Of a DNA stretch of 15,154 nt, positions 1 through 15,154 are shown piece by piece. The notes beneath the pieces were generated by a model. That model was not told where the DNA came from. It saw only the letters and a list, made by a program, of their open reading frames with translations, and made no database searches. This stretch comes from an uncultured Methanosarcinales archaeon (GTDB lineage Archaea > Nanobdellota > Nanobdellia > Woesearchaeales > CAZYIM01). The position numbers were made by a program, and so were the translations under genes. The stretch lies in assembly GCA_964647565.1 (NCBI GenBank), contig CAZYIM010000048.1, forward strand, positions 1 to 15,154, written 5' to 3'. The number at the start of each line of letters is the position of its first letter. The first letter of the stretch is position 1.

Positions 1-1
1 C

Positions 2-319
2 TATAGCGACACTGGCCGTGTTGAGCTTGTAGAGGATGATGAGATAACTCCTGAAGAAGAAGCCTTTATGCAGGGCTATGAACAAGAGACTGAGGAGAAG
101 CCCAAGACAGATGTAGATGAGATCTATGCTTCTGCTTTTGAAGGTGCATCATCCAAGAAGAAAAGGTCTGTTGCTTATAAGAAACCTGCTAAGAAGAAGC
201 CTAAGCCTAAACCAAAGAAAAAAGCTAAAACTAAGGCCAAGAAGAAGGCTGTCAAAAAGAAACCAGCTAAGAAGTCTAAACCTAAGAAAGCTGTAAAAAA
301 AGGAAAAAAGAAAAAATAA
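2..319 (+). CDS. Hypothetical protein, 5'-truncated by window edge; acidic segment followed by Lys/Ala/Pro-rich histone-H1-like tail
   Basis: Frame of the 68..319 ORF stays open to base 2 (YSDTGRVELVEDDEITPEEEAFMQGY...), so the ATG at 68 is probably internal; C-terminus is KKPAKKKPKPK...KKGKKKK. Confidence 0.75.
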   Translation, partial: YSDTGRVELVEDDEITPEEEAFMQGYEQETEEKPKTDVDEIYASAFEGASSKKKRSVAYKKPAKKKPKPKPKKKAKTKAKKKAVKKKPAKKSKPKKAVKKGKKKK

Positions 320-324
320 TAAAT

Positions 325-2250
325 TTATAACACATCAAGTTCAAGCTTTTTCTCAGAGATGTTCTTTTTCAGCGTATCTATGAACTCATCCAGCTTGACA
401 TCAAACTTGAGCTTTCCATCCAAGGTCCTGACTGCAATGGTCTGCTTCTGCTCTTCCTTCTCTCCAACATTAATGATTAGGGGGATCTTCTGCAATTGAG
501 CATCCCTGACCTTTCTTCCAACACTCTCTGTACGAAAGTCCATCTCTGCCCTGATTCCAGCTTCAACAAGTTTCTTATGAATCTCTGTACCATAGCCATT
601 GAACTTCTCTGAAACTGTAAGTACAACAGCTTGTACAGGCGCAAACCATAACGGGAACCTGCCTGCAAAGTGTTCGACAATTATGCCAATAAATCGCTCA
701 AGCGCACCATAAATGACCCTATGTATCATCACAGGTCTGTGCTTGGTGCCATCCTTGCCTTCGTATGTCATGTCGAATCTTTCAGGCAAACTCATATCCA
801 GCTGGATTGTGGCGCACTGCCATGTCCTGCCGATAGCATCTGTGACATGTACATCTATCTTTGGGCCGTAGAATGCGCCGTCTCCTGGATTGATCTTGTA
901 CGGTTTCTTGGACTTGTCAAGGGCTTCTTTGAGCTTGCTTGTGGTCAATTCCCAGTCTTTGTCAGATCCTATTGACTTCTCAGGCCTTGTAGACAACTCT
1001 AGATAGTATGACAGGTTAAAGACCTTGTAAAAGCGGTCAACCAGGTTCAACACACCCAAGACCTCATCAACTATCTGGTCTTCTGTCATGAAGATGTGCG
1101 CATCATCCTGATGGAAGCATCTTACCCTAAAAAGACCTGCTAGTGTACCTGAAAGTTCGTGTCTATGCACTAATCCTACTTCGCCAGCACGAATTGGAAG
1201 TTCCCTATAGGAATGTACTTTTTCATTGTAGATCAGCATTCCGCCAGGACAGTTCATGGGCTTGACTGCAAAATCCTGGTTGTCGATCTTGGTTGTATAC
1301 ATGTTTTCCCTGTAGTTCTCCCAATGGCCTGATTTTTCCCATAATACCCTGTTAAGGATTATAGGGGTTTTGAACTCAACATAGCCAGCCTTTTGGTGCT
1401 CCTCTCTCCAGAACTTCATAAGCTCATTCCAGATGACCATACCCTTGGGCAGGAAGAATGGACAGCCTGGTGCTTCGTCATGGAAGCTGTACAGCTCTAG
1501 TTGCTTGCCGATCTTCCTATGATCCCGTTTTTCAGCCTCTTCCAGCCGCTTAAGATAAGCGTTCAGTTGTTTCTTGTCTGGAAAACTGACGCCGTAAATA
1601 CGCTGTAAAGGCTTGCTTTTTGCATCCCCTCTCCAATAGGCCCCAGAGACTTTTGTCAGCTTAAAAGCCTTTATTTTAGCTGTGGAAACAATATGCGGTC
1701 CTCTGCACAGATCTATAAAGTCGCCATTCTTGTAAATGGATAGCTTTTGGCCTTCTTCAGCAAACTCTTCAATAAGCTCAATCTTGAATGGATTGTCCTT
1801 GAAGATCTTCAGTGCTTCTGCCTTGTTAAGTTCCTGCCTTACAAAGGGATGATCCTCCTCAGCAAACTTCTGCATCTGCTTCTCAATCCGCTCCAGATCA
1901 GACGGCTTCAACGGTTTGATATCTATATCATAATAGAAGCCGCCCTCTACTGTAGGTCCGATTGTCAGCTTTGCAGCAGGATAGAGCTTCAATATAGCCA
2001 TAGCCATCAGATGCGCTGAGCTGTGGTGGAAAACCTCCTGTCCCTCATGCGTATCATATGTAATGAACTCTACTTTAGCATTCTCTTCAATCGACCTGTT
2101 CATGTCAAACAGGCTGTTGTTGACCTTAGCAGCCAAAGCAGCATCTGCTAACCTTGGCCCAATACCCTTGACGATCTCCTCTGGCTTTACGCCTTTATCA
2201 TATTCCTTTTTGGAGCCGTCTGGAAACTCAATTGTTATTTTATTTGACAT
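325..2250 (-). CDS. thrS: Threonine--tRNA ligase, bacterial-type (TGS + N2 editing + class II core + anticodon-binding domain), 641 aa
   Basis: Motifs ITIEFPDGS (TGS), HSSAH and DLCRGPH (editing), KPMNCPG, FYGPKID, WQCATIQLD, IHRVIYG. True start is the ATG at 2250, preceded by the RBS GGTGA (2256-2260); the extension to 2394 in the ORF track is structured leader RNA. Confidence 0.97.
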   Translation of the reverse strand: MSNKITIEFPDGSKKEYDKGVKPEEIVKGIGPRLADAALAAKVNNSLFDMNRSIEENAKVEFITYDTHEGQEVFHHSSAHLMAMAILKLYPAAKLTIGPTVEGGFYYDIDIKPLKPSDLERIEKQMQKFAEEDHPFVRQELNKAEALKIFKDNPFKIELIEEFAEEGQKLSIYKNGDFIDLCRGPHIVSTAKIKAFKLTKVSGAYWRGDAKSKPLQRIYGVSFPDKKQLNAYLKRLEEAEKRDHRKIGKQLELYSFHDEAPGCPFFLPKGMVIWNELMKFWREEHQKAGYVEFKTPIILNRVLWEKSGHWENYRENMYTTKIDNQDFAVKPMNCPGGMLIYNEKVHSYRELPIRAGEVGLVHRHELSGTLAGLFRVRCFHQDDAHIFMTEDQIVDEVLGVLNLVDRFYKVFNLSYYLELSTRPEKSIGSDKDWELTTSKLKEALDKSKKPYKINPGDGAFYGPKIDVHVTDAIGRTWQCATIQLDMSLPERFDMTYEGKDGTKHRPVMIHRVIYGALERFIGIIVEHFAGRFPLWFAPVQAVVLTVSEKFNGYGTEIHKKLVEAGIRAEMDFRTESVGRKVRDAQLQKIPLIINVGEKEEQKQTIAVRTLDGKLKFDVKLDEFIDTLKKNISEKKLELDVL

Positions 2251-2304
2251 TATTATCACCTTTGTTGTGTTTGTATGCTTTGATTTTAAATAGTTTACCT
2301 TTAG

Positions 2305-2530
2305 AACCTGCCTTCCCTGGCGAAAGACGGCCAAACGCTTTGCGTTTGTCCTACGAGGCACCCCACAGGGGTTCCCCCGCCTCGTCTTTGCCAAGGCAGG
2401 TTAAAACCATCTTGCCTCGTTACCTTCGGCAATCATGCCAATCAGGGCACAGACGGTCTTGGCTTTCGACTTTTTGTTCCTTTTCCAGGCCGCTTGCCCC
2501 AGGTTAACAACGCCCATGACTTATGCCTGT
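2305..2530 (-). promoter_or_regulatory. GC-rich structured RNA upstream of thrS (multibranched fold with alternative pairings)
   Basis: Perfect 10-bp stem AACCUGCCUU (2402-2393)/AAGGCAGGUU (2314-2305); AAAGACG/CGUCUUU; ACGAGGC/GCCUCGU; CAAACGC-AAA-GCGUUUG (2348-2332); ACCCC-UGU-GGGGU (2372-2360). Visibly more GC-rich than other intergenic DNA here. Confidence 0.75.
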
Positions 2531-2549
2531 TGAGAGAACAATGAAAAGA

Positions 2550-2636
2550 TTATATAGTTGTAGTGGTGGTTGTAGAACTAGCTAAGAAAAAGTGCTTTGA
2601 TCCGACATTCGATTTGTTTTCGATATTGTTCTTCAT
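2550..2636 (-). CDS. Thr-rich leader peptide, 28 aa (MKNNIENKSNVGSKHFFLASSTTTTTTI), thrL-like
   Basis: ATG at 2636, RBS AGGTGG at 2648-2643, six tandem Thr codons ACA ACC ACC ACT ACA ACT (2573-2556), TAA at 2552-2550; co-oriented with and upstream of thrS. Confidence 0.85.
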   Translation of the reverse strand: MKNNIENKSNVGSKHFFLASSTTTTTTI

Positions 2637-2672
2637 TTATGTCCACCTATTCCGACTGATAAATAGTATATA

Positions 2673-2688
2673 CTTATAAATGTTTTTA
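2673..2688 (-). promoter_or_regulatory. BRE/TATA promoter for leader peptide-thrS transcript
   Basis: TAAAAACA-TTTATAAG on minus strand, about 25 nt before the leader RBS; similar CGAAACATTTATATA boxes precede the 5742 and 11085 minus-strand genes. Confidence 0.65.
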
Positions 2689-2780
2689 CTCCAGAGGACG
2701 ACTAAAAACAAAAAGTTTAAATATGTGCGACCTCAAAAACAGACTATTAATCATTATTATAAATTAGCTGAGGTGTTAGG

Positions 2781-4028
2781 ATGAAAAAGAAGATAATCTT
2801 ATTGGTTGTAATAATGGCATTAATGGTAATGCCCGCATTTGTAACTGCCAATGCTTTTGAAAGCATTTTTGATGTTATTAATGATGGTGCGGAACTTCTT
2901 ATGGGCAAACAAAGATCTACTAAAGAATCATTAAAAGATCTTCCTCAGGATGAGTTATGGAAACCTGTCTTATTGACAATGGCGTTAGTCGGAGGTCTTG
3001 TATCTGCAGGTCTTGCAAATATCAAGCTCTTTGATAAGAAAAAAGGCGCCGTAACTACAATTGCAATAATAATGGCTATTGCCACTGTTAGTTCACCAAT
3101 AACAGGCGTAATCTGGTCTATGAATTGGATACTTATAGGCGGTATGTTGATTTGTGTACTAGTATTCTTAGTCTTGAGTGTAGTCAGATCTTCAAAAGCC
3201 TCATCTGAAAGGGCGAAAGTCGATCTGACAAAAATGAAGTCTGATCAAGCATCCGCTGAAAAAGACTTAAAATATGCTGAAAAAGACAGAGCAATTGCAG
3301 AGAGTGAACTTCGCAATGAAGAGAAAATGATTGATAATGAAACACAATCAATGAATTATGCAATGAATAGCATAGATATGTTAAGCAGTTTAGGAAAAGA
3401 CGAGCTTAGAGATCTAGAAGCGATCTTAGATATAGTCAAGCAGCTATCATATGTAAGCGATGAAAGGGATGCAGCAAAACTAAAAGAGAGCGCTTTGCGA
3501 GCATTATCTGCTGCGGCTTCCGCAATAACTCATAAAAGAGAATCTATCGCTAAACTTGAAAAAGAAATGAAAAATATTCAGGGATATGAACATGAAGGCC
3601 TTGGAATGGAAGTTGATTTGTCTAAAATAGAAACAAAGCTTATTGAGCTATATAAGCGAAATGTTGGTACTGCACCTGGCGCTGCAACTAATAAGATGAA
3701 AACCCTAAAAGCTTTTGCTCAAAGGACCTATGAATTCTTTAGGGAAAGAGATACTCTAATCAAAGAATTGGCTGCTGAGATAGATTCATTTGATAAAAGG
3801 GATCAACAAGCAAATCAGCATGTACAGAACATCATCTCAAGGTTGCACGAGAATAATTTCCCTTCAGCACTTACTGAAATAAATAATGCGATAACATTAA
3901 AGAAACAGACAGTGACCGCAACCCAAAGATTTAAGGCATTCTCTGACAGGATAGACGCATTAGCAGCTGAGCTTAACAAATTATTTAAAGCAACTGGAGC
4001 GGAAATAGAAGCAGTAGTTAATAAATAG
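2781..4028 (+). CDS. Membrane-anchored coiled-coil hypothetical protein (signal peptide, ~3 TM helices, long helical domain)
   Basis: RBS GAGGTG at 2770-2775; MKKKIILLVVIMALM signal-like start; hydrophobic segments, then ~280 aa of heptad-like E/K/A/L-rich sequence. Confidence 0.8.
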   Translation: MKKKIILLVVIMALMVMPAFVTANAFESIFDVINDGAELLMGKQRSTKESLKDLPQDELWKPVLLTMALVGGLVSAGLANIKLFDKKKGAVTTIAIIMAIATVSSPITGVIWSMNWILIGGMLICVLVFLVLSVVRSSKASSERAKVDLTKMKSDQASAEKDLKYAEKDRAIAESELRNEEKMIDNETQSMNYAMNSIDMLSSLGKDELRDLEAILDIVKQLSYVSDERDAAKLKESALRALSAAASAITHKRESIAKLEKEMKNIQGYEHEGLGMEVDLSKIETKLIELYKRNVGTAPGAATNKMKTLKAFAQRTYEFFRERDTLIKELAAEIDSFDKRDQQANQHVQNIISRLHENNFPSALTEINNAITLKKQTVTATQRFKAFSDRIDALAAELNKLFKATGAEIEAVVNK

Positions 4029-4036
4029 AGCTAATA

Positions 4037-4059
4037 CTTTATTTTTTTATTTCTTTTTT
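4037..4059 (+). terminator. Oligo-T archaeal terminator for 2781..4028
   Basis: CTTTATTTTTTTATTTCTTTTTT immediately after the stop codon. Confidence 0.5.
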
Positions 4060-4267
4060 ATTTAGGCTTGGTTGTAGTATATGGCAATTTAGCCCTGAAA
4101 AGAACATTAAAATGATCTGATAAGGTCATCTCATCATGATATTTTATCCTTCTTGAAACGTATTTATTAGATGTTTTAAACGGTACAAGTTTCACTTTTG
4201 GTGTCCTTTTATAATCAATAGTATCATGATAGGTTTCATTGATTTTAAAGCATAAACGATCAAACAT
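4058..4267 (-). CDS. Possible small hypothetical protein (69 aa, MFDRLCFKINE...)
   Basis: Non-overlapping 3' part of the 4058..4453 ORF fills the gap after 4293..5009; no clear RBS. Confidence 0.35.
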   Translation of the reverse strand: MFDRLCFKINETYHDTIDYKRTPKVKLVPFKTSNKYVSRRIKYHDEMTLSDHFNVLFRAKLPYTTTKPK

Positions 4268-4292
4268 GCTAAGTGTTGGCGTCGCTTCTTGT

Positions 4293-5009
4293 TCAGTTGT
4301 CTGTTCTTGCGTTGTTGTTTGAGCTATAAGATGGAACACGAATCTTTCTTGTCGTATTCGTTGCATCTGCTGCAAGAATATTTGCATCTTGGGTGAAGTA
4401 GGTTGATTTGTTCCTGTTAAAGATCTTGAGTTTAGGACCTGCTTTCTTAGCATCTTGGTATTCTGCCAACACTTTGCTCATGTAATCGCTTGCTTTCTTG
4501 GCATTCTTTAACCGCATGCCTGACAGTGAAGCAGCAAGGGATTGCATTTTTTTTATCTTGGAATATATTTCTACAACATTAAACTCATAAATAACCTGCA
4601 CATTTGGTGAATTCATTAAGTGAATGTAATTTGTTGCCATATCTCTTATGTTTTTCTCTGTTGGTTTCTTTTTATTCGAAACCTCTGATATTTCATTAAC
4701 CCAGCCTCTGACTTCTGTATGTTCCTCGTCTGTTTGGCTCAAGCTCTGTTGTACAGCGCTTTCAAGGGCAGCATATGATTGATCGATGGGATCAGAATTA
4801 TCTCTTAGTTGAAAATTAGCTTCAGTAGATTCAGTTACTTGAGGTGTATAAAAGCCTTCATCTGATATGCTATGATCAAGATCAGTATATGCATGGGTGC
4901 TAAACCTAGCATCCCTTATGCTTTTATCATTTGGTAGAATAATAGATTCATACAACTCTTTTGACCTGATGAAATGTTTTAGGAATGTTTCAGCTCTTGC
5001 TTCTTGCAT
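4293..5009 (-). CDS. Hypothetical protein, diverged paralogue of 5050..5742
   Basis: RBS GAGGTGAG before the ATG; colinear motifs shared with the neighbour (E..Y.P.V; Q.Y...E..V.Q.L; YEFN....Y). Confidence 0.75.
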   Translation of the reverse strand: MQEARAETFLKHFIRSKELYESIILPNDKSIRDARFSTHAYTDLDHSISDEGFYTPQVTESTEANFQLRDNSDPIDQSYAALESAVQQSLSQTDEEHTEVRGWVNEISEVSNKKKPTEKNIRDMATNYIHLMNSPNVQVIYEFNVVEIYSKIKKMQSLAASLSGMRLKNAKKASDYMSKVLAEYQDAKKAGPKLKIFNRNKSTYFTQDANILAADATNTTRKIRVPSYSSNNNARTDN

Positions 5010-5049
5010 TTTAACTCACCTCGAATTTTAAAAAATGATTAAAAAAAAT

Positions 5050-5742
5050 TTATAATTTCTGCAAATAAATTAGGTTTGCAGCTGTATCGATTGATAATTT
5101 ACCGTTATAAGATCCTTCCATCTTACCAATCTTTTTATGCCGTTTAATAGCTGCTTTTGCAGTCAAATTAGCTGCCTGAGCACCCTGACATCCATTATTT
5201 TCTGTTTGCTTTGCTATTTCAGTTACTAGATGATATAGGTTCTTGGCATTGAATTCATAGCTAAAGCTTGTATGTGAATGTAGAGTTACCAAATTGGTTC
5301 TTATTTCGTCAAATGTTTTCCTTCCTGGTGAAGAAATAAAAGTTTGTGCGGCCTTAACTCTTTCTGTTTTTGCTTCTTCAGAAGTTAAAGCTTGTCCGAC
5401 ACCTTGCTCAAAGTTTTGATATCCTTGTTCAAAATCAGATACTTTAAAATCATTTTGATTAAAAGGTAAAACAGCTCTAACATCAACACAAGGGATATAT
5501 GTTCTTTCTGCGTCTAATTCAGCTTCTAATGGCTTGAATTTGGCTTTTAATCTTAATGCATCTCCGCCATACTGAGAAATTGGAGACTTATCTTCTCCAA
5601 AATTAATTGGTGTTTCATCTTCTCTTTGTACGGTTCGCTGTCTTGTTTGCATGTTTGCAACGGCATCAAGAATTGCCATGTAATCATTAACAAAGTTAGA
5701 AATTTGATCTGAATTGATTTTTTTCTTTGTTCTTATGTTCAT
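5050..5742 (-). CDS. Hypothetical protein, diverged paralogue of 4293..5009
   Basis: RBS GGGTGAT; promoter CGAAACATTTATATA at about 5801-5787; 230-aa ORF. Confidence 0.75.
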   Translation of the reverse strand: MNIRTKKKINSDQISNFVNDYMAILDAVANMQTRQRTVQREDETPINFGEDKSPISQYGGDALRLKAKFKPLEAELDAERTYIPCVDVRAVLPFNQNDFKVSDFEQGYQNFEQGVGQALTSEEAKTERVKAAQTFISSPGRKTFDEIRTNLVTLHSHTSFSYEFNAKNLYHLVTEIAKQTENNGCQGAQAANLTAKAAIKRHKKIGKMEGSYNGKLSIDTAANLIYLQKL

Positions 5743-5892
5743 TGGTTATCACCCATTCAATTGTAACTACTTTATAATAGTATTAATATATAAATGTTTC
5801 GGTTTCAGTCCGGATATCCTCCGACATGAACCAAAAACTCTCCGGTTTTTTCTAGACAAAATATAAATTACTCGGAAAACATACGGTTAACT

Positions 5893-6591
5893 ATGGCTGA
5901 GACAACTCAAACCCCAACTTTGTATGAACAGATCGATGATCTGCAATATTCACCAAGGCTCTACAAGCGGGCCACTGCAGAAAAGAATATTGTGCTGTTT
6001 CTTCGATATCACGAGAACAGGAAGACAACAGATGATAAGAATTATCAAACAATTAATGACAAGTTCAAGAATATAATATTCCAGCAGACTGAGCTTACCT
6101 ATAAAGATTATGAGCCCATCAACCAACTGGAGCAATACCTATTGAATTTAGCTCGAATACAAAGTATTGGTAAGATGGGCGTCTCAGGTAACCGCAAGGA
6201 ATACAAAGAAGGGCTCACAAAACTAATAAAAAAGATAATCAAAAAAGACGATAGCTACAAAACTCTTGATAGAAAAGGAAAAAAGACCTTAATGAACAAG
6301 GCCACAATATATGCACACACAGCCGCAAATATACGGAATGATAGTTTTAATTTATACTGCAGACGTGCTAAGTTAAGAACAGACTTTGAAAAGCTAGTAG
6401 ATACATATAATCATTTTAGCCAGAACTACAAATTGGCTATAATAAAGAATATTGATTTTATGCCTGAACTAAAGGATAAAGATGTTACAAAAATAAAGGC
6501 TGAAAACAACCTGCTCATGAACTTAAAAGGTATTAAAAAAATCATGACTTGTGATGCAATGCAATTCTGTTTAGAAGTGCTCAATCCTTAA
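5893..6591 (+). CDS. Hypothetical basic, helical protein
   Basis: 232-aa ORF with TATA-like ATATAAAT about 25-30 nt upstream (leaderless-type); 11-bp convergent overlap with the HDAC gene. Confidence 0.7.
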   Translation: MAETTQTPTLYEQIDDLQYSPRLYKRATAEKNIVLFLRYHENRKTTDDKNYQTINDKFKNIIFQQTELTYKDYEPINQLEQYLLNLARIQSIGKMGVSGNRKEYKEGLTKLIKKIIKKDDSYKTLDRKGKKTLMNKATIYAHTAANIRNDSFNLYCRRAKLRTDFEKLVDTYNHFSQNYKLAIIKNIDFMPELKDKDVTKIKAENNLLMNLKGIKKIMTCDAMQFCLEVLNP

Positions 6592-7408
6592 TTAGAAGGT
6601 TTACGCCGTCTCTTATGCTTTCAGCTGAATAACCACCCTCGAGCAGATAAAAGGTCTTATATGGCTTTAAAATGGCTTTAAGCACATCATAGCTTTTCCC
6701 GGTAATCCTAAAGCCGACGCCAGGATGAAGCACGTCAAGATCAGTACAATAGCTGTCAAAACCAGCGCTTACGCCTACAATATCAGGATCAAATTTCTCA
6801 AGCTCCACTTTCAATTTCTTCTCTAATATGCTTATATAGCCAACATCACTAGTCTGATAAGGCATAGGGATGTTCACACAGTTTCTTTCAGGGTACTGCC
6901 CGGTTCCAGGATACATGGGTGATTGGTGTATAGAAAAGAACATTGCATTCTCCTCACCTAATAATATATCCTGCGTCCCATTGCCATGGTGCAGGTCAAT
7001 ATCAAGTACAAAGACCCTTTTGCCTTCAGAAACAAGCTTTTTAGCGACTATGCCCATATTATTGAATATGCAAAAACCCATCGACTGATCACGAGTAGCG
7101 TGATGCCCTGGAGGCCTTACTAGTGCAAATGCACTGTCTTCTGCAGCTTTAATCGCAGCTCCAACCGCATAACAAGCAGCTTCGTAACTCTTCTCATTAG
7201 TATAAGTATCTCCGTCGAGCCAGGCCCCCCTTTTACTGGCTTCTTTAACAGCGTCAATCATGCGTTTTGTATGTGCCAAAGAAAGATATTTCTCCCCATT
7301 TTCAACTACAGTCTCCTCTAACTCTTTGAAGTATTTCAGTCTTGTATTGTTCTCTGGATGCTGAGGATTGTTATGCTCCAAAAATTTTTTATTAAAAATC
7401 AGTTTCAT
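6581..7408 (-). CDS. Histone deacetylase family (Zn-dependent amidohydrolase) protein
   Basis: HPE, RPPGHHA, GFCIFNN, DIDLHHGNGTQD, SAGFD and EGGY motifs all present. Confidence 0.95.
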   Translation of the reverse strand: MKLIFNKKFLEHNNPQHPENNTRLKYFKELEETVVENGEKYLSLAHTKRMIDAVKEASKRGAWLDGDTYTNEKSYEAACYAVGAAIKAAEDSAFALVRPPGHHATRDQSMGFCIFNNMGIVAKKLVSEGKRVFVLDIDLHHGNGTQDILLGEENAMFFSIHQSPMYPGTGQYPERNCVNIPMPYQTSDVGYISILEKKLKVELEKFDPDIVGVSAGFDSYCTDLDVLHPGVGFRITGKSYDVLKAILKPYKTFYLLEGGYSAESIRDGVNLLIKD

Positions 7409-7452
7409 GATTTTGGGTAATTTCTATTTTTTAAAATAAAAATTGTTCTGTA

Positions 7453-7489
7453 AAATATATTTTCAATCGCATCTAAAACTTTTAAGCAA
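7453..7489 (+). repeat. Left copy of 37-bp imperfect direct repeat (partner 12467..12503)
   Basis: AAATATATTTTCAATcgcaTCTAAAActTTTAAGCAA vs AAATATATTTTCAATagttTCTAAAAtaTTTAAGCAA; 32/37 identical by manual alignment. Confidence 0.75.
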
Positions 7490-7526
7490 AAACTAGAAAT
7501 CTTAGAATCTATTTTTTTCATTAATT

Positions 7527-7590
7527 TATTGTAAAACCAATATATTGTTGAAACAATATATCATCCATTATATGTGTTGTATAACCAATA
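7527..7590. repeat. Phased array of 16-bp palindromes TATTG-N6-CAATA (putative protein-binding sites)
   Basis: TATTGTAAAACCAATA (7527), TATTGTTGAAACAATA (7543), degenerate unit (7559), TGTTGTATAACCAATA (7575); followed by TTTATAAA at 7593-7600. Confidence 0.75.
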
Positions 7591-7629
7591 TATTTATAAA
7601 GTTTAAAAGTTTTAAGCAATGATAGAAAA

Positions 7630-7971
7630 ATGAAAAAACAAACAAAATCATCGTCGGAAATGCTCGAACTTAAGGGATTTTTATCTTTTTTAATACTGCA
7701 CGAACTAAAACTAAAGAGTCTATGTGGAGAAGACCTGGCCAAGAAGATTGGAAAACGGAAAGGCAACATGTTGACCCCTGGTACAATATATCCTGCCCTA
7801 AAGAAACTCAGAAAAAAGAAATTAGTCACCTACAAACGCTTTGGAAGAAAGAAGATATATTCCTTGACTGATCTTGGCAACAAAGAACTAACCAAGCAAT
7901 ACAAGCTCTTTAGCCAGTACTTCTATGGTCTTAAGCATATCATCAGACGTCAGACAATTAAAAAGAAGTGA
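7630..7971 (+). CDS. PadR-family winged-helix transcriptional regulator
   Basis: LKGFLSFLILHEL, G.DLAKKI, PGTIYPALKKL, RKKIYSLTDLG: typical PadR pattern. Confidence 0.9.
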   Translation: MKKQTKSSSEMLELKGFLSFLILHELKLKSLCGEDLAKKIGKRKGNMLTPGTIYPALKKLRKKKLVTYKRFGRKKIYSLTDLGNKELTKQYKLFSQYFYGLKHIIRRQTIKKK

Positions 7972-7976
7972 ACTAA

Positions 7977-8618
7977 TCAAACTCCGTGTAGGATCCTGAG
8001 TATCTGGTCTTTATGATACTCTTTAACTTCTTTTTCATGCTTCTTAGAATAGAATTGCCTGAATTTCTTTCTAATTGATGATTTCTCTCTCTTTAAGACC
8101 GAGATTAAGATATCTGAATAAACAAAGTAGGCTTCATCTATTCTTTTATTCTGCTTAAATTCCTTTAATCCTCTTATCACAGGTACAGTATGTTCTGCCA
8201 ATTTAAAAGTCAGGAAACCAAAAAGACCCACATTTATCAATGGGTTATATGCAGGAATATCTCTTAAGAAGAAAAATGCACCAATACCCATATATCCGAA
8301 AAAATGTTGAAATGCTTCAAAATATTCATAGATTTGTCCTGTTCTTTCTGTAAAGTCTCCTCTGGTGCGTGTATGATATTCCTGATTATACAACTGTATT
8401 TCCTTAACTACTTGATCTACAGATAACTTATTGCTACGATAGTTATTCATGATATTGATAAAATCATAATCCTTCCAATGGGCTTTTTTCATGTCAGAAC
8501 TAGCCATTGCAAAATCAATCATCTCATGTATCCTAGATTTAGCCAAAGTTTCAAGTCCGGAACGCTTTTTATAGTTCAAAGGGTTCGCTTTTTGTTCTTT
8601 TCTTGTACTTTTGCGCAA
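7977..8618 (-). CDS. Hypothetical membrane protein (2 TM), probable paralogue of 8665..9231
   Basis: TTG start after GGTGA RBS; two central hydrophobic segments. Confidence 0.7.
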   Translation of the reverse strand: MRKSTRKEQKANPLNYKKRSGLETLAKSRIHEMIDFAMASSDMKKAHWKDYDFINIMNNYRSNKLSVDQVVKEIQLYNQEYHTRTRGDFTERTGQIYEYFEAFQHFFGYMGIGAFFFLRDIPAYNPLINVGLFGFLTFKLAEHTVPVIRGLKEFKQNKRIDEAYFVYSDILISVLKREKSSIRKKFRQFYSKKHEKEVKEYHKDQILRILHGV

Positions 8619-8664
8619 TGAGCATCACCGAGAAAAAGGAAGCGGGAAATGATAATAAATATTG

Positions 8665-9231
8665 CTATTTTGCAAGCTCAGCCCTTATATGGCCTAATGC
8701 AGATTCAAGCATATATCTATTTTCCTTTGTGTTTGCAAACATATGTGCCATGTTTCCATTGTAAATGGCCCTGTAATCTGAGTAATCAATTTCTTTAGTA
8801 GCTGGTCCGCCAGTTTTGTAGAATTCCAAGCAGGCACGTACTACAGCTATGCCTGCAATGATAAAACATGCTGCCTTGCTAATTGGTTCAGGAGAAACAT
8901 TGCCAACCAGGGTTGCTGCCACAGCTAAGACACCATACTTTAGGAAAGTATTGACAGACTCATATAATTCATCTCTTGGAGGTTGGCTCTCTACCCCCTC
9001 TCTTTGCATCTGATGCTGATAACTTGCAGAAATACAATTGAGCACTTCTCCAGAGACCTCTTTTTCATTATAACGCTTTTGGCCGTAGTTTGTCAATAGA
9101 TTGCATAGGCCAGGATTATAATCTGGATTTTTTTGCGAATATCGAAATTCACTCAATAATATCTCACCAAGGCTTTTTGTTGAAAAACTAGAAAGATCAG
9201 ATGCTTTTTGGGTTTCGTTGTTTTCTATCAT
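8665..9231 (-). CDS. Hypothetical membrane protein (2 TM)
   Basis: 188-aa ORF; TM segments FLKYGVLAVAATLVG and AACFIIAGIAVVRACL. Confidence 0.7.
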   Translation of the reverse strand: MIENNETQKASDLSSFSTKSLGEILLSEFRYSQKNPDYNPGLCNLLTNYGQKRYNEKEVSGEVLNCISASYQHQMQREGVESQPPRDELYESVNTFLKYGVLAVAATLVGNVSPEPISKAACFIIAGIAVVRACLEFYKTGGPATKEIDYSDYRAIYNGNMAHMFANTKENRYMLESALGHIRAELAK

Positions 9232-9340
9232 TATGTTTTAATCATAAATAGGCCGGCCTTTTTCGTTGAAATATGGCCTTCAACGCCATTTTGTGCTTAA
9301 TAAACACTGTTTTAAGATGTTTTTTGAGCCAAAATGACTA

Positions 9341-9832
9341 TTATAGTCGTCTAGGCTTAAATCCTTCTTGTAAAATTCCCTTTGTTTTCAAGATTTGTAA
9401 AATTTCCTTATAAAATTGATGCGAATGTAGCATTTTATGACAGTTTGGACATAATGCAATAAAATTTTCTTTTGAATTGTTATTCTTGTCTCCATCCAAA
9501 TGATGTAATTCTACAATCTTTGAAAATGAGCAGATAATGCATTCTTTTGTTAATTCGCGATATTGTTCTAAGGAAATACCGAAATATTTTCTTTTATTAT
9601 AAGAAAGAACTTTATCATAGTGATGAAGACGATTATGGCAGCTTGCGCAAAGCCCCAACGCTTTATGGGGTAAAATGCGCTTACAGTTCTTACATTCTAT
9701 GTTCCTAGCTTTCCATTTCTGCTTATAGCATTTATAGCACACATCTTTGGCATGAAGTTCTTTTCTTTCACCACATTCAGTGCAATCAATTAAAACGCGG
9801 CCATTAACATTAGGATTAGGATATCTCTTCAT
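9341..9832 (-). CDS. HNH endonuclease with multiple CxxC zinc-finger motifs
   Basis: CIIC...ELHHLDGDKNNNSKENFIALCPNCHKMLH (HNH); N-terminal CTEC/CYKC/CKNC/CASC; TATA TTTATAAA at 9862-9855. Confidence 0.9.
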   Translation of the reverse strand: MKRYPNPNVNGRVLIDCTECGERKELHAKDVCYKCYKQKWKARNIECKNCKRILPHKALGLCASCHNRLHHYDKVLSYNKRKYFGISLEQYRELTKECIICSFSKIVELHHLDGDKNNNSKENFIALCPNCHKMLHSHQFYKEILQILKTKGILQEGFKPRRL

Positions 9833-9885
9833 AAAACGCTATTTTATGATATTATTTATAAAAGTTCGCATTAAATAAGCAGAAA

Positions 9886-9913
9886 ACTTCCGATAATGTG
9901 CGTTAGACGAACT
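9886..9913 (+). other. dif-like 28-bp Xer recombination site (11-6-11)
   Basis: ACTTCCGATAA-TGTGCG-TTAGACGAACT; TAA-N6-TTA core, arms 7/11 palindromic; 9/11 and 7/11 matches to B. subtilis dif arms as recalled (ACTTCCTAGAA / TTATGTAAACT); intergenic and 1.6 kb from xerA. Confidence 0.6.
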
Positions 9914-10592
9914 ATTCGGGTTGTTTTGTATCTAAGTAAATATTTTCAAAATTTCCTCTGTGAAATATTAAACTCTTCATAGATGTGTAAAACAGGTGTA
10001 CTAAACCTCCTTTATGTAAAAATCTTTCTTTTGTTGGATATGGAATTTTAGTGCCTGGAAAAGTCACAGAGTAAGGATTTGGATTTTGACATCCTTTTTC
10101 AAAAATAATATGCATTTAGTCTGCGTATTCTTTAATACTCATTTTTTCCTCAACCATAGTTTTGCTTGAATTCTCAGTAGGTTCATAATGTTTCCAAACT
10201 GCTCCATCCTTATATTGTATCCAATTATGGCCGCTACATGTATCGTCCATAAGGGGACTTGATGTTAACCTGATCATCTTCTTCAATTCGCTTTTGTTGT
10301 TTTGCCTGATCAGTTGATTATACACTTCGAATGTTGTCAAGGGAAAGTCCTTGCAATTGCCTTTACCTGTGCCTTTTTCAAAGATTATCTTGTTAGCCAA
10401 CATCAGATAATCCAAGGCAGTAGAATCATCAGAAAGACCGGTGTATTTTTCTATTTCTTCTTTAGAGACTTTAATACGGCTTTTTTTATGATGAGAAACA
10501 ACTGAAGATACTGTATCTACAATTGGAAAAGTGAATTGGTTTAATGCAGCATATGTTCCTATTATTGTAGCAATATCCGAGATCTCGATCAA
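9912..10592 (-). pseudogene. Transglutaminase-like (Cys-His-acid) protein interrupted by an in-frame TAA at 10118-10116, or two abutting genes
   Basis: RBS GGAGG + TTG start; motifs GNCKDF, GHNWIQY, WKHYEPT; the 67-aa ORF 9912..10115 continues in the same frame directly after the stop. Confidence 0.5.
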
Positions 10593-10632
10593 ATTTATTG
10601 CCTCCGTTAAATAACATTCACAATATCAGAGT

Positions 10633-11085
10633 TCATTTCGTCATATCAGGTAGATTTAGGCTTTTGCCAGCAAGGATCTCGAACTGACCATATATCTTTT
10701 CTCCATGCTCAGTAATTGTTGGCTTGTCGAACGTTCTGTATCTTCCAGCGCCTGATTGGATAGCAAGGGTCTCGAGATTGGTGATGTAAGCTCTTGAAGT
10801 ATCAGCACCTACAACCCCCATCTTGTTAGCAATACTCCTTGGGGAATCCCCTTTTTGAATAGTGTAGTTAATTGTGGGGTGCGTATTAATTTCATCAATG
10901 ATCTGACCTTGTTTCACTTGGGGTTTGATCAATGTGTGGTAGAACGCAGTGCTTAAAATTACCAACCCTATAGCAGCACCTGCAACATATTTCAGATTAG
11001 TAAAATTTAATCTCTTTTTGCTTCGCTTTAATCGGCTGCTTTTCCTTTGTTTTTGTTTAAAATTGATTCTGTTATAGTTAGTCAT
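10633..11085 (-). CDS. Membrane-anchored LysM-like domain protein
   Basis: Basic N-terminus, one TM helix, YTIQKGDSPRSIANKMGV ... ILAGKSLNLP (LysM ends with an inserted loop); RBS GAGGTGG. Confidence 0.75.
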   Translation of the reverse strand: MTNYNRINFKQKQRKSSRLKRSKKRLNFTNLKYVAGAAIGLVILSTAFYHTLIKPQVKQGQIIDEINTHPTINYTIQKGDSPRSIANKMGVVGADTSRAYITNLETLAIQSGAGRYRTFDKPTITEHGEKIYGQFEILAGKSLNLPDMTK

Positions 11086-11209
11086 ATGACCACCTCAAAT
11101 GTATAATTGATTTAGTCATATATAAATGTTTCGTTTTTTTAACTACTGCGGAGTAACAATAACGACATTATGCGAACCTTTAAATAGAGGTTTGTCTAAG
11201 AAGAATCAT

Positions 11210-11545
11210 ATGGCTGAAGATTTTAAGATGCCGGATATGAACATGGATATGCCAGATATAGATGCAAAACCCGCATCAGAAGAACCAACAGGAGGTGATT
11301 TTAGTAAAATGTCAAGCACAAGCTTACCTGGAGACAAAAAGAAGTTTTCATTTTCCATTGTTATACTAATTATTGCAATCATTTCTTTAATCATATCAGT
11401 ATATTATATACTGCTTGACTTGAGCATAGCACCGTTCTTTTTCATCATCCCAACTGTGATATTTCCCATATTACTTTTTATATGCTCAGCAGCCTTGATT
11501 ATCTTTATGATTATGTACCATCATCTAAAGGGAAAAGGGATCTAA
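11210..11545 (+). CDS. Small membrane protein (2 TM, acidic Met/Pro/Asp N-terminus), co-transcribed with xerA
   Basis: ATG at 11210 (MAEDFKMPDM) lies about 25 nt after TATA TTTAAATA (11179-11186); stop is 1 nt before the xerA ATG. Confidence 0.7.
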   Translation: MAEDFKMPDMNMDMPDIDAKPASEEPTGGDFSKMSSTSLPGDKKKFSFSIVILIIAIISLIISVYYILLDLSIAPFFFIIPTVIFPILLFICSAALIIFMIMYHHLKGKGI

Positions 11546-11546
11546 T

Positions 11547-12356
11547 ATGCTTGAAAAACTCGAGACAGAGCTTAAATTAAGGGGTTTTAGCAAGAGAACT
11601 ATAAGCACATATATCTTTCAGAACGAAAAGTTTCTCAAATATATACATAAGGATCCTCTTAATATCCAGACTGACGATATCAAGATGTATCTAGCACACT
11701 TGATTTCTGATGCAGGCAAATCAAATGCTACAGTAGCTTTGGCAAAGGCAGCTATTAAATTCTATTATGATGAGGTATTGAAGAGGAATATTGTCAACAT
11801 CAAGACGCCAAAAATAGGTAAAAAACTGCCGACTGTGCTAACTAAAGATGAAGTAAAAAGACTGATATCTGCTGCTAAAAGCATCAAAAGCAGATTGATA
11901 ATCAAGATGCTCTACTCGACGGGGATGAGGGTCTCTGAACTGGTAAATATGCGTGTAAATGACTTGGAGTTGGATGAAAAACATGGTTGGATTAGGGGTG
12001 GTAAAGGTTCAAAAGATCGGATGGTGATATTGTCTGATAATCTGATCTGTGATCTGAGAAAATTTCTCTCAACTTATTCAAGAGAATACTTGTTTTCAGG
12101 ACGAAACATGCAGTTAACTCCGAGAAATATACAAAAAATAATTCAGAATTCTGCCAAGAATGCAGGCATAAACAAACGTGTCTCGCCGCACACATTGAGA
12201 CATAGTTTTGCCACTCATTTATTGGAATCTGGTACAGATATCCGGGTCATACAGGAGCTATTAGGACATGCCAATCTTCAGACGACACAGATATATACTA
12301 GGGTCAGTTCTGAGGAGATAAAAAAGGTCAAAAGTCCATTAGATTCTATCTTCTAA
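11547..12356 (+). CDS. xerA: Site-specific tyrosine recombinase, XerA/XerC-D-like
   Basis: N-terminal SAM-like domain (LKLRGFSKRTISTY); catalytic set TGMRVSE (R), GKGSKDR (K), HTLRH (H,R), LGH (H), TQIY (Y). Confidence 0.9.
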   Translation: MLEKLETELKLRGFSKRTISTYIFQNEKFLKYIHKDPLNIQTDDIKMYLAHLISDAGKSNATVALAKAAIKFYYDEVLKRNIVNIKTPKIGKKLPTVLTKDEVKRLISAAKSIKSRLIIKMLYSTGMRVSELVNMRVNDLELDEKHGWIRGGKGSKDRMVILSDNLICDLRKFLSTYSREYLFSGRNMQLTPRNIQKIIQNSAKNAGINKRVSPHTLRHSFATHLLESGTDIRVIQELLGHANLQTTQIYTRVSSEEIKKVKSPLDSIF

Positions 12357-12408
12357 AAATTCTAAAAAATGCTTAAAACTTTTAGTTCAATATTTTTTAA
12401 TTATGAAG

Positions 12409-12456
12409 TATTGGTTATCTTATCTATTGGATAAACAATTTATTGTATTTACAATA
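12409..12456. repeat. Second phased array of TATTG-N6-CAATA palindromes
   Basis: TATTGGTTATCTTATC (12409), TATTGGATAAACAATT (12425), TATTGTATTTACAATA (12441); exact 16-bp period. Confidence 0.7.
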
Positions 12457-12466
12457 ATATTCTTAG

Positions 12467-12503
12467 AAATATATTTTCAATAGTTTCTAAAATATTTAAG
12501 CAA
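12467..12503 (+). repeat. Right copy of 37-bp imperfect direct repeat (partner 7453..7489)
   Basis: Matches the left copy; the copies start 5014 bp apart. Confidence 0.75.
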
Positions 12504-12526
12504 TAATTAAAAAAATAAGAAATACT

Positions 12527-13057
12527 CTAAACTGTGTTTTTGGCAACAAGGGTTTGAGAAAACGATTCTGTAATTCCCATGACATTTCTTCTGGCCTGGA
12601 ATTCCTTGAATCGCCTGTCAATATAGAAATATACCTTGTCGTCGAGGGATCTTTGTTCGATTATCTTAACTCCTTTGTTGATCAGGGTGTTAATATAACC
12701 CAGAAGCATCCTGTTATTTAGATCCGTCTTCATTGAGATATCATCTAATGTCATTCCTGTCTCAGACATATACAGGACCATGAAAACCCTTTTTTCCATC
12801 TCTCCAAAGTTCATTTTAGTGTACTCAGGATTGAAATCTTCCTCACAACCTATTGCAAGTTTCAACTCAAAAAGTTCTTCCTTAACTTTTTCAAGCATAA
12901 GACGAAGCTCTTGCATTTCAGTTGTGTTTTCATTAATAGAATCCCGATGTTCATTCAATTCTCCCTTAACAGAACCAAATGCTTTTTTCAGCTTTTTCTC
13001 GTCGATACTGCGTCGTTTAAAAAAACTCAAAACACTGTCAATTATCACTATACTCAT
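12527..13057 (-). CDS. Hypothetical protein with N-terminal coiled coil and C-terminal winged-helix-like domain
   Basis: RBS GGGGGTGA; heptad segment (VKGELNEHRDSINENTTEMQEL...); EKRVFMVLY...MTLDDISMKTDL...YINTLINKGVKI is wHTH-like. Confidence 0.7.
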   Translation of the reverse strand: MSIVIIDSVLSFFKRRSIDEKKLKKAFGSVKGELNEHRDSINENTTEMQELRLMLEKVKEELFELKLAIGCEEDFNPEYTKMNFGEMEKRVFMVLYMSETGMTLDDISMKTDLNNRMLLGYINTLINKGVKIIEQRSLDDKVYFYIDRRFKEFQARRNVMGITESFSQTLVAKNTV

Positions 13058-13233
13058 AACTTCACCCCCAATTAAACTGATTTTGATTTCTTTAAATAGT
13101 TTTATATCTTTAGAAAAATATAATGAAACAATTTTGATTCAATTGCCTATTTTCTAGAAGTCAAATATTAGTATGGATAAGTATTCTGTATTTAGGAAAT
13201 ATTTTAAAACAACTACAACTATTCCTTAATAAA

Positions 13234-13863
13234 ATGTCTAAAACAGAGCTAGCATGTATCCTATCCAAGTTAAAAACCTTTGATAATCCTAAGATATATC
13301 TAGAGCAATATCCGACAGACTCAGAGATAGCTGCAGATGTGTTGTGGCATGCTGCGCTATTAGGGGATATAAAAGGTAAGTGTATATTAGATCTAGGTTC
13401 AGGTTCAGGAATTCTTGGTATTGGAGCTTTAATCATGGGTGCAAAGCAAGTTAGTTTCATTGATATTGATGAAGATACAGAGTCCCTACTGGCAAAGAAT
13501 TTAGAATCAATCAAGAGCCAATATGAGCTTTCTGGAACTACAAAATTCATTAATAAGGATATAACTCTTGTTTCTAAAAAAGACGTTGGTAAAATTGATT
13601 TAATAGTGCAAAACCCGCCCTTTGGTACTAAGAATAAACATATTGACTGGCAATTCTTAGAAAAAGCAATGCATCTATCGGATGTTATCTATTCTTTCCA
13701 TAAGACTGAAACGCGAGAGTATATTGAAAAGAAAATAGCAGATTCTGGCTTTAAGATAACCCATTATTTCCAATTCAATTTTCCTATAAAAAAAACCATG
13801 AAACATCATAAGAAAAAGATCGAAAGAATTAATGTGAGTTGTTGGAGATTGGTCAAATCATAA
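13234..13863 (+). CDS. METTL5-family SAM-dependent (N6-adenine-type) RNA methyltransferase
   Basis: LEQYPT, DLGSGSGILG, NPPFG, YSFHK motifs. Confidence 0.92.
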   Translation: MSKTELACILSKLKTFDNPKIYLEQYPTDSEIAADVLWHAALLGDIKGKCILDLGSGSGILGIGALIMGAKQVSFIDIDEDTESLLAKNLESIKSQYELSGTTKFINKDITLVSKKDVGKIDLIVQNPPFGTKNKHIDWQFLEKAMHLSDVIYSFHKTETREYIEKKIADSGFKITHYFQFNFPIKKTMKHHKKKIERINVSCWRLVKS

Positions 13864-13904
13864 AGCAAAAATTTATAAATAATTTGGGGTTTCACTGAAG
13901 AATT

Positions 13905-14180
13905 ATGGAAATAAAAGTTATTGAATACTCGAAGAAGAGAATCTTGTTTGAACTTAAAGACGCAGACAACACATTTACAAATGCGCTTAAGAAAGAGCTA
14001 ATTAATGATAGTTCTGTAAAGGTTGCTACCTTTAATATTGACCATCCGCTCATAGGAATTCCTAAGATGATCATAGAGACAGACGGAAAGAAAGATGTTA
14101 AAAAAGTAATGACTGATGCCTGTTCCCGACTGAAAAAAAGGAATGACGCTTTCTTGAAGAAATTCAAATCCTTGAAGTGA
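13905..14180 (+). CDS. rpoL: DNA-directed RNA polymerase subunit L (Rpo11)
   Basis: MEIKVIE...D.TFTNALKKEL...V.VATFNIDHPLIGIPKMIIET; TATA TTTATAAA about 26-33 nt upstream. Confidence 0.93.
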   Translation: MEIKVIEYSKKRILFELKDADNTFTNALKKELINDSSVKVATFNIDHPLIGIPKMIIETDGKKDVKKVMTDACSRLKKRNDAFLKKFKSLK

Positions 14181-14249
14181 TTTTGAAAGAAATCTATTAA
14201 ATTGTACTACCTATTTAAGGTTTAGAAATGTTCAAAGCATTTCAGTAAC

Positions 14250-14257
14250 TTTATAAA
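14250..14257 (+). promoter_or_regulatory. TATA box for tRNA transcript
   Basis: TTTATAAA 43-50 nt upstream of the tRNA-Ile 5' end. Confidence 0.55.
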
Positions 14258-14299
14258 CTTTCATCTTTTCTAATACAAATCATGAGCTGCAATGCTTGT

Positions 14300-14454
14300 G
14301 GGCCTGTAGCTTAGCCTGGAAATGGCTTTTGACCATTGGGAATTGGAGCGCTGGTCTTATAAGTCCACGTTTCGTACAACGACTACGAGAGCCAGTGGTC
14401 CGGAGTTCAAATTCAAGAAGATATATCTTCTGGATGAAAGTCTCCGCAGGCCCA
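14300..14454 (+). tRNA. tRNA-Ile(UAU) with three introns (D-loop ~14320-14343; 37/38 14362-14389; 59/60 14412-14440)
   Basis: Acceptor GGGCCTG/CAGGCCC+A; D stem GCTT/GAGC; anticodon stem CTGGT/GCCAG with CT-TAT-A; T stem CGGAG/CTCCG. Each insertion folds into a BHB or relaxed BHB; the D-loop boundary is uncertain by 1-2 nt. Confidence 0.85.
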
Positions 14455-14506
14455 TTAAAAAACATATATGACACGGCCTTCGGAGGCCTAGCAACTTGTT
14501 GCTCAT

Positions 14507-14523
14507 GTCTCCGCAGGCCCATT
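14507..14523 (+). repeat. 17-bp exact duplicate of the tRNA-Ile 3' end (14440..14456)
   Basis: GTCTCCGCAGGCCCATT at both positions. Confidence 0.9.
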
Positions 14524-14578
14524 TTATTCTTTTTTTCTGAAAAAATTTAAAAAGAGATTGCATCTCCAAAACATCAAT

Positions 14579-14721
14579 GCCCCGCTGGTGTAGTCCGGAA
14601 GGTATCACATAGTGGTGCCTGGACAACCAATCATACTGGCTTTTCGAGCCAGTGACATGGGTTCAAATATCCTGGAGGAAGACAGAAAATCCCTCTGGGT
14701 TTGAGAGTCCCGTGCGGGGCA
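14579..14721 (+). tRNA. tRNA-Glu(UUC) with two non-canonical introns (D-loop 14599-14626; 59/60 14668-14707)
   Basis: Acceptor GCCCCGC/GCGGGGC+A; spliced D arm GGTGTAGTCCGG^CCAATCAT typical of archaeal tRNA-Glu; CTGGC-TT-TTC-GA-GCCAG; BHB central helices GTCC/GGAC and TTCA/TGAG. Confidence 0.92.
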
Positions 14722-14795
14722 TTTATTTTTCTTTAAAAAGTTTGAAAAAATTGACTGTAATTGGAAACCCAATCTATCATTTACAAGCAGACTTT

Positions 14796-15152: not shown

Positions 15153-15154
15153 TA

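Follow-up and report, generated by a model that had tools for sequence, protein, structure and literature searches.

Threonine-run leader ORFs before thrS and hom genes of Woesearchaeota-like archaea: a candidate family of ribosome-read attenuators

Results

The leader ORF and thrS

The window is a 15,154-nt stretch of DNA (assembly GCA_964647565.1, contig CAZYIM010000048.1, positions 1 to 15,154) from an uncultured archaeon deposited as Methanosarcinales and placed by GTDB in the Woesearchaeales. Its minus strand carries thrS, the gene of a bacterial-type threonyl-tRNA synthetase (ThrRS), and upstream of it a short open reading frame (ORF) that ends in six threonine codons. An earlier annotation made from the letters of the window (the sequence-only reading) had proposed that this ORF is a leader that senses threonine for thrS. 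The genome to which the window belongs (G000) comprises 2.68 Mb in 86 contigs and is 86.9% complete. The features of the locus are as follows.

2550..2636, minus strand: leader ORF of 28 codons plus stop, MKNNIENKSNVGSKHFFLASSTTTTTTI, by translation (ATG at 2636, stop at 2552-2550)
2556..2573, minus strand: run of six Thr codons, ACA ACC ACC ACT ACA ACT, read from the sequence; the presumed sensing site
2673..2680, minus strand: TATA-like box TTTATAAG of the leader ORF, with 36 nt between the box end and the ATG
2643..2648, minus strand: Shine-Dalgarno-like AGGTGG of the leader, 6 nt upstream of its ATG
2532..2549, minus strand: T-rich tract TCTTTTCATTGTTCTCTC past the leader stop, including the conserved box TCATTGTT (2544-2537)
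2296..2520, minus strand: GC-rich structured element between the leader and thrS, about 55-68% G+C, fold z -2.96
2283..2290, minus strand: TATA-like box TTTAAAAT, a possible (predicted) thrS promoter, 32 nt from the box end to the thrS ATG
2256..2260, minus strand: Shine-Dalgarno sequence GGTGA of thrS, read from the sequence
325..2250, minus strand: thrS, bacterial-type threonyl-tRNA synthetase of 641 aa, with the domains TGS, tRNA_SAD, tRNA-synt_2b, and HGTP_anticodon

Translation of the minus strand yields the 28-codon ORF at 2636-2550 that the sequence-only reading had picked out, and its description of the peptide end is also correct: TTTTTT is followed by the Ile codon ATA and the stop TAA, the run is composed of ACA, ACC, and ACT codons, and there is no Thr outside it. 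The two initiation signals that it had named, a TATA box and AGGTGG, are both present, and their spacing matches that of other G000 genes with a Shine-Dalgarno site. Genome-wide, the ends of TTTA[AT]ATA boxes lie 21-25 nt from the ATG in G000 genes without a Shine-Dalgarno sequence (the leaderless class) and about 30-47 nt from it in genes with one. The 36-nt spacing and the AGGTGG of the window leader fit the latter class, and its mRNA is hence predicted not to be leaderless. Many G000 genes without a Shine-Dalgarno sequence have a box at 21-25 nt, and leaderless mRNAs therefore appear to be common in this organism.

The distance from the leader stop to the thrS ATG at 2250, put at about 300 nt by the sequence-only reading, is 299 nt. 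A domain search supports the identity of the thrS product by four domains: TGS, tRNA_SAD, the class-II core (tRNA-synt_2b), and the anticodon-binding HGTP_anticodon. Neither hom, the gene of homoserine dehydrogenase, nor an archaeal-type ThrRS was detected in G000, which is 86.9% complete. Because an archaeal-type enzyme is not detectable, the window thrS probably encodes the main ThrRS of the organism. A second, partial bacterial-type thrS (53% identical) is located at G000:C79:3792-4730; it has no leader, and its 4.7-kb contig (44% G+C versus 37% for the window contig) is probably foreign to the bin. A tRNA scan found no tRNA in the window.

Recurrence of Thr-run ORFs upstream of thrS

Among the short ORFs of G000 (8-60 aa, located outside long ORFs), the window leader is the only one in the whole genome with a terminal run of at least four Thr. 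The sequence-only reading had suggested looking for Thr-run ORFs upstream of thrS in relatives. We collected the 700 nt upstream of bacterial-type thrS from 130 genomes of the same order, nearly all from different families; these loci comprise 30 initial ones and the 100 best-scoring thrS matches that had a full N-terminus and sufficient DNA upstream and were not flagged "unpublished". A leader was defined as a short ORF of at most 70 aa with a run of at least four Thr that ends no more than two residues from the stop. Such an ORF was found on the sense strand in 12 of the 130 loci, from nine families, and on the antisense strand in none. All other amino acids pooled gave three sense and five antisense cases in the same loci, with at most two loci for any one amino acid. 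The number of Thr-run loci expected is about 0.2 versus the 12 observed (Poisson P about 1e-17, a value to be read with the caution that kin are not independent and that the 12 loci represent nine families). A Thr-run leader ORF before thrS thus recurs beyond chance. The peptides of the relatives end in TTTTT, then A, C, I, or N, and then the stop, and their N-terminal parts are unrelated.

The surroundings of the closest ThrRS relatives in named genomes were examined at 79 loci, which are mostly from Desulfobacterales and Clostridia and include five records labeled Woesearchaeota or Nanoarchaeota, and no ORF with a C-terminal Thr run was found there; three of these loci have a three-Thr run more than 540 nt upstream, none of them at a C-terminus. 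Runs of L, S, F, K, and I in short ORFs are common noise in G000. Apart from the leader, no short ORF between genes that ends in a run adjoins an obvious cognate gene there, with the limit that the other aminoacyl-tRNA synthetase genes were not identified, and the box TCATTGTT is not linked to other codon-run ORFs of this genome.

Association with threonine genes

Directly past the stop, most leaders carry the box (G)CTGT-TCATTGTT-TCTTT. A composite pattern of four Thr codons, stop, and box was searched in 401 genomes of the order. It gave one match each in 11 genomes, and the reversed control gave a single match in all. Nine of the 11 matches are upstream of thrS, and the other two (G139 and G269) are upstream of a homoserine dehydrogenase gene (PF00742). 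In G139, the leader is followed by hom and then directly by thrS.

A looser pattern (five Thr codons, any codon, and T-R-R) occurs at 125 places in 95 genomes. We examined 92 of these places, after exclusion of 28 that end in TGG and therefore have no stop, four in unpublished genomes, and one duplicate, and classed a place as leader-like if it is intergenic and has a start codon and either a promoter or a Shine-Dalgarno site. Twenty-one places were judged leader-like, and 20 of them have a threonine gene downstream: bacterial-type thrS in 16 cases, hom in three, and archaeal-type ThrRS in one (G059, an enzyme with the PF08915 editing domain). The gene downstream of the remaining place, a doubtful case in G331, encodes an HTH_10 protein. 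The other 71 places are out-of-frame coding stretches or the C-termini of long proteins. In G100, the leader precedes hom and a GHMP kinase gene, whose product is presumably homoserine kinase.

Approached from the side of hom, which was detected in 60 of the 401 genomes, a Thr-rich leader is present at six of the 29 hom loci analyzed (three of the 29 are from unpublished genomes, all three without a leader). This search added three carriers, namely G069 (hom followed by thrS), G161, and G049. Archaeal-type thrS has a leader at only one of 30 loci. Altogether, a leader adjoins a threonine gene in 25 of the 401 sampled genomes, from 16 families. At least two metagenome contigs with a thrS-linked leader (L241 and L291) come in addition to these genomes; a pattern scan of metagenomes yielded at least 120 stretches from at least 80 loci, and among the matches listed, 60 were in frame, of which three were leader-like (L241, L291, and L240) and the others were chance matches.

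The hom-thrS and hom-GHMP kinase pairs occur in several families of the order: L425/L364 (G139), L430 (G069), and L348/L365 (G100). Given the presence of hom in 60 genomes, some members of this small-genome order are probably capable of threonine synthesis. The doubtful G331 case (L380, G331:C4, about 9820-9840) is a leader-like ORF, MDNAKQMVTVYSRLVITPTTTTTL, with a Shine-Dalgarno site, located 155 nt upstream of the gene of the HTH_10 DNA-binding protein. An ACUAC/GUAGU hairpin spans its stop, a box-like UCAUAGUCUUUUC is present, and its neighbor is not a threonine gene.

Anatomy of the leaders

The terminal runs of 24 leaders consist of four to nine Thr in the predicted translation. Eighteen of 23 leaders have a TTTA[TA]A[TA]N box whose end is 20-26 nt from the in-frame ATG, the leaderless spacing by predicted transcript starts; those outside this group, including the window leader, have a Shine-Dalgarno site and a longer box spacing. 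The alignment of 22 leaders contains four Thr codons in a row in which the first two positions never change and the third position varies. All four Thr codons are used (65 ACA, 37 ACT, 27 ACC, and 6 ACG). As judged from the alignment, the constraint on the leader acts on coding. Conservation is confined to the Thr run and the sequence past the stop, and the remainder of the peptide is not conserved.

The two conserved parts are the strands of one predicted hairpin. The last Thr codon and the codon that follows it (mostly GCN, sometimes TGY, GTA, or CTG) pair with bases past the stop, and the stop itself lies in the loop. Of 22 loci folded with RNAfold, 20 have such a predicted stop-spanning hairpin. 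The stems vary by lineage in a compensating manner (ACAGC/GCUGU, ACUGC/GCAGU, CCUGC/GCAGG, GACC/GGUC, and CGACC/GGUCG). MAFFT misregisters the arms of these stems, and we therefore permuted the 5' and 3' halves of the loci instead of relying on fixed alignment columns. The native halves gave -6.30 kcal/mol versus -4.19 +/- 0.37 kcal/mol for permuted ones, and none of 2000 permutations was as low. With 16 non-redundant loci, the values were -5.62 and -3.47, respectively, again with 0 of 2000 as low. The hairpin is thus specific to each locus. In the typical family member, the box (G)CUGU-UCAUUGUU forms the 3' strand and is followed by a U-rich tract. Pairing between UUGU in the box and ACAA in the Thr run lengthens the stem; in G069, the extension reaches 8 bp (AACAAUGA:UCAUUGUU, -14.5 kcal/mol). 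The conservation of the box can be explained by the Thr codons, which fix its pairing partner. Besides this single conserved hairpin, no antiterminator or pause hairpin was found in the leaders; at the G161 and G049 hom loci, a second hairpin is present. None of 16 relatives' loci has an Rfam match, including RF00506 and the T-box RF00230.

A CAT triplet at +7 to +9 past the stop is nearly invariant, being located exactly 6 nt past the stop in 14 of the 20 leaders with CAT (24 examined). The CAU past the hairpin pairs with an in-run ATG only in G069. Pairing of this CAU with a 5'-terminal AUG was considered and rejected, as the extension was 1.75 versus 1.58 in permuted pairs, with 1144 of 5000 permutations as high.

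A run of at least four T within 30 nt past the stop is present in 14 of 23 leaders. Ordinary gene ends of G000 are enriched in T tracts, with a run of at least five T at 27% of them versus 8.6% inside genes. In the relatives, the next gene starts 28-157 nt past the leader stop; most thrS spacers are 68-157 nt, and hom starts only 28 and 45 nt past the stop in G100 and G069, leaving no room for a separate promoter. The thrS gene has a Shine-Dalgarno sequence at 11 of 12 leader loci versus 51 of the 117 loci with no leader (Fisher p 0.0016), and many of the latter have the appearance of leaderless genes. This enrichment fits a thrS that is a downstream cistron of a longer transcript.

The GC-rich element and other features of the window

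The GC-rich element in the leader-thrS spacer of the window is about 220 nt long, has a strong predicted fold, and is absent from the leaders of the relatives. Its 52-nt hairpin core recurs once with 83% identity, at G000:C27:9637-9688 (L002 about 1501-1552), where the second copy sits between two genes on the same strand. No Rfam family matched in the window at the gathering score, the element included; at E values up to 10, there were only weak hits at chance level, of which the best was HgcC (E 1.2), covering part of the element. The locus of the second copy has no Rfam match, and region 2200-2800 of the window matches neither RF00506 nor the T-box RF00230 even at E values up to 10. Pairing of the Thr run with the GC-rich element was tried as a candidate structure and was not significant (54 of 300 shuffles as good). 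A look-up of sequence data containing region 1800-2900 of the window listed eight DNA contigs and no RNA.

The last codons and stop of the window leader, together with the next base (ACT ATA TAA T, 2549-2556, minus strand), read as a TATA-like TATATAAT, with about 24 nt between its end and the GC-rich element. A small RNA gene in its own right is a possible identity of the element, in which case its promoter would overlap the end of the leader.

On the plus strand, positions 2781-4028 encode a divergently transcribed 415-aa protein with an N-terminal hydrophobic stretch, a long coiled-coil-like tail, and no Pfam match. Likewise, 15 of the 19 other window ORFs tested have no Pfam match; those with a match encode a histone-deacetylase domain (6581-7408), HNH_2 (9341-9832), a tyrosine recombinase (11547-12356), and a small methyltransferase (13234-13863).

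Discussion

Proposed mechanism

We propose, with a probability of roughly 60%, that the window ORF is a member of a threonine-sensing leader family, a ribosome-read attenuator, in a DPANN-type, Woesearchaeota-like order. From the anatomy of the leaders, we infer the following course of events. The leader ORF would be transcribed from its own promoter and then translated, and the speed of the ribosome over the terminal Thr codons would report the supply of charged tRNA-Thr. With ample Thr-tRNA, the ribosome would reach the stop and depart, the hairpin would form, and the transcripts would terminate at the U-rich tract or be silenced there in some other way. With too little Thr-tRNA, a ribosome detained within the Thr run would keep the hairpin open by direct occlusion. 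RNA polymerase would then continue into thrS, hom-thrS, or hom-thrB, which would be translated from their own Shine-Dalgarno sites. This direction of the response would be physiologically sensible, as it would supply more ThrRS and homoserine dehydrogenase at a shortage of Thr-tRNA.

We are somewhat inclined toward a broader proposition, in which mostly leaderless Thr-run mini-ORFs form a threonine "ribulon" that controls thrS and hom operons through a hairpin made of the sensing codons. Archaea would then use ribosome-mediated attenuation, and one design would serve three kinds of gene, namely bacterial-type thrS acquired by horizontal transfer, archaeal-type thrS, and hom.

The claim of the sequence-only reading that the leader is a Thr sensor for thrS gains from the recurrence in 25 of 401 genomes, the promoter spacing, the synonymous variation at third positions, and the hairpin formed by Thr codons. 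Its support is partial, and the window copy lacks both the hairpin and a terminator-like site.

Several observations weigh against the proposed attenuation. In the window, no hairpin is predicted across the leader stop (0.0 kcal/mol), the predicted fold of the leader transcript is no stronger than that of shuffled sequences (z +0.32), and a simple scan found no terminator-like site in the leader region. The 299-nt spacer is longer than the 28-157 nt of the relatives, and it contains the GC-rich element and the TATA-like box 32 nt before thrS, which suggest that thrS may be transcribed separately. Among the relatives, a fixed-column covariation count on the MAFFT alignment gave 62.9% paired versus 59.2% in shuffles (54 of 500 as high); the count does not exceed that of shuffles because loop lengths differ, MAFFT misregisters the arms, and one stem is common to many loci. 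At several hom loci, no U tract follows the hairpin, ordinary gene ends of G000 are not enriched in hairpins, and we know of no requirement for a hairpin in archaeal termination. If the ribosome stalls as soon as it enters a long Thr run, on the first codon, it may miss the inner stem, and the direction of the switch is thus not derivable from the sequence. Finally, only about 6% of the sampled genomes carry a leader.

Alternative explanations

In one alternative, the family is real and the window copy is a vestige of it or has another mode of action. Its hairpin would have disappeared upon insertion of the GC-rich element, and thrS would now be expressed mainly from the proximal promoter. We consider this unlikely as the full account, and yet it has the best standing among the alternatives. 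The window leader ends in ATA-TAA instead of the usual GCN-TAA, and its box is without a partner for the inner stem. The absence of a hairpin and of a terminator-like site, the long spacer with an element foreign to the relatives, the TATA-like box at promoter distance from the thrS ATG, and the TATA-like sequence formed by the leader end just ahead of the GC-rich element all agree with it. On the other hand, the promoter, the Shine-Dalgarno site, the start codon, the intact six-Thr run, and the box have all been kept, and a decaying 87-nt ORF at 37% G+C would quickly gain stops. The window leader may depend on another structure further downstream, or it may have been disabled in part.

A somewhat less probable alternative keeps the sensor and changes its output from transcription to translation: the stalled ribosome, or termination at the leader stop, would alter downstream initiation by unmasking the ribosome-binding site or by termination-reinitiation. 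Such translational control is the mechanism of the closest published analogue, the polycysteine small ORFs (sORFs) of mycobacteria (10.1101/834739). Some hom loci would suit it, with spacers of 28 and 45 nt, a Shine-Dalgarno site, and no U tract. However, a simulated stalled ribosome left the unpaired probability of the region from -16 to +3 unchanged (mean change -0.006, 19 loci), most thrS spacers are far longer than those of these hom loci (68-157 nt), and no complementarity between the Thr run and the Shine-Dalgarno sequence was found.

Opposite polarity by transcriptional interference is improbable. Here, stalling would uncouple the ribosome from the polymerase, the leader transcript would be ended by aCPSF1/FttA-type termination or by the hairpin, and an occluded thrS promoter would be freed. 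TATA-like boxes do occur 23-34 nt before the thrS ATG at several leader loci, thrS at two leader loci has no Shine-Dalgarno sequence and shows leaderless spacing, and, by its geometry, an early stall in a run of six to nine Thr would leave the inner stem free. A strict TATA definition, however, leaves six of the 12 leader loci without a box before thrS, the Shine-Dalgarno sequences at 11 of 12 favor a longer transcript, and the hom spacers of 28-45 nt are too short for a second promoter.

That the ORF is a chance ORF, a low-complexity ACN repeat, or the coding sequence of a small non-regulatory peptide with an independent function can practically be set aside: spurious short ORFs are abundant in AT-rich genomes and the window ORF by itself is indistinguishable from chance, but the family recurs only in sense orientation beside three kinds of threonine gene, has the correct promoter spacing, and is conserved in the Thr run and the post-stop sequence and not in the remaining peptide.

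Comparison with known systems

The classical leader-peptide attenuators of Escherichia coli are thrL (RF00506), hisL, pheL, leuL, trpL, and pheM, the last located before pheST. The archaeal leaders resemble the thrL/pheM class in that a short ORF has its cognate-codon run directly ahead of the stop, and in that the leader lies upstream of hom, as thrL does of thrA, or of the cognate synthetase gene, as pheM does of pheST. In most relatives, though not in the window copy, a predicted hairpin and a U-rich tract come next, reminiscent of the thrL class, and conservation of the peptide is limited to the regulatory codons. Unlike the thrL class, the leaders have an archaeal host, TATA-box promoters, and mostly leaderless mRNAs (by prediction). 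They also have a single hairpin with the Thr codons as its 5' strand and the stop in its loop, which the ribosome would occlude directly, and no match to RF00506 was found; the chemistry of termination in archaea differs as well.

In the pyrBI attenuator of E. coli, the ribosome occludes the terminator hairpin without an antiterminator, and UTP is sensed via polymerase pausing. The mechanism proposed here shares the direct occlusion of a hairpin by the ribosome without an alternative structure, but would sense an amino acid by a codon run and not UTP by polymerase pausing. The T-box leaders of Firmicutes thrS genes and the tRNA-mimic operator of E. coli thrS are cis-acting controls of thrS that respond to tRNA-Thr charging or to the ThrRS level and involve no ORF. 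The archaeal leaders would likewise regulate thrS in cis, but they involve an ORF, and no T-box was found in the window or in the loci of the 16 relatives.

The closest analogue is the "Cys ribulon" of mycobacteria (Canestrari et al., 10.1101/834739), in which control is translational and relies on base pairing of the Cys codons with the downstream gene's Shine-Dalgarno region. As in mycobacteria (10.1101/834739), the archaeal sORFs have a run of a single amino acid and lie before several unlinked cognate loci, of which they would be the first cistron; most are predicted to be on leaderless mRNAs, and the codon run is predicted to form one strand of a putatively inhibitory duplex. The two systems differ in the other strand: the Thr codons pair with a box just past the stop, 30-100 nt before the next ribosome-binding site, and the Cys codons with the Shine-Dalgarno region itself (10.1101/834739).

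Significance

The sequence-only reading had remarked that no well-characterized leader-peptide attenuator is known from archaea, and our full-text literature searches agree, having found no report of leader-peptide attenuation in archaea. To our knowledge, this type of regulation has been described only in bacteria, where it is the textbook case of coupled transcription and translation used for regulation. If the proposed mechanism is true, codon-run sensing would be a regulatory principle that crosses domains and requires transcription-translation coupling in archaea, and the leaders would offer a concrete, mutable object for testing whether the archaeal ribosome steers RNA polymerase or the fate of the transcript. 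The design would be a minimal attenuator, in which the sensing codons are themselves a strand of the hairpin; it would be simpler than the bacterial three-hairpin attenuator and maybe useful as an engineering part. Unannotated mini-ORFs in archaeal intergenic regions could then be functional. For the organisms themselves, it would mean that uncultured archaea with small genomes, many without amino-acid synthesis (no hom was detected in G000, which is 87% complete), still gauge the charging of their tRNA.

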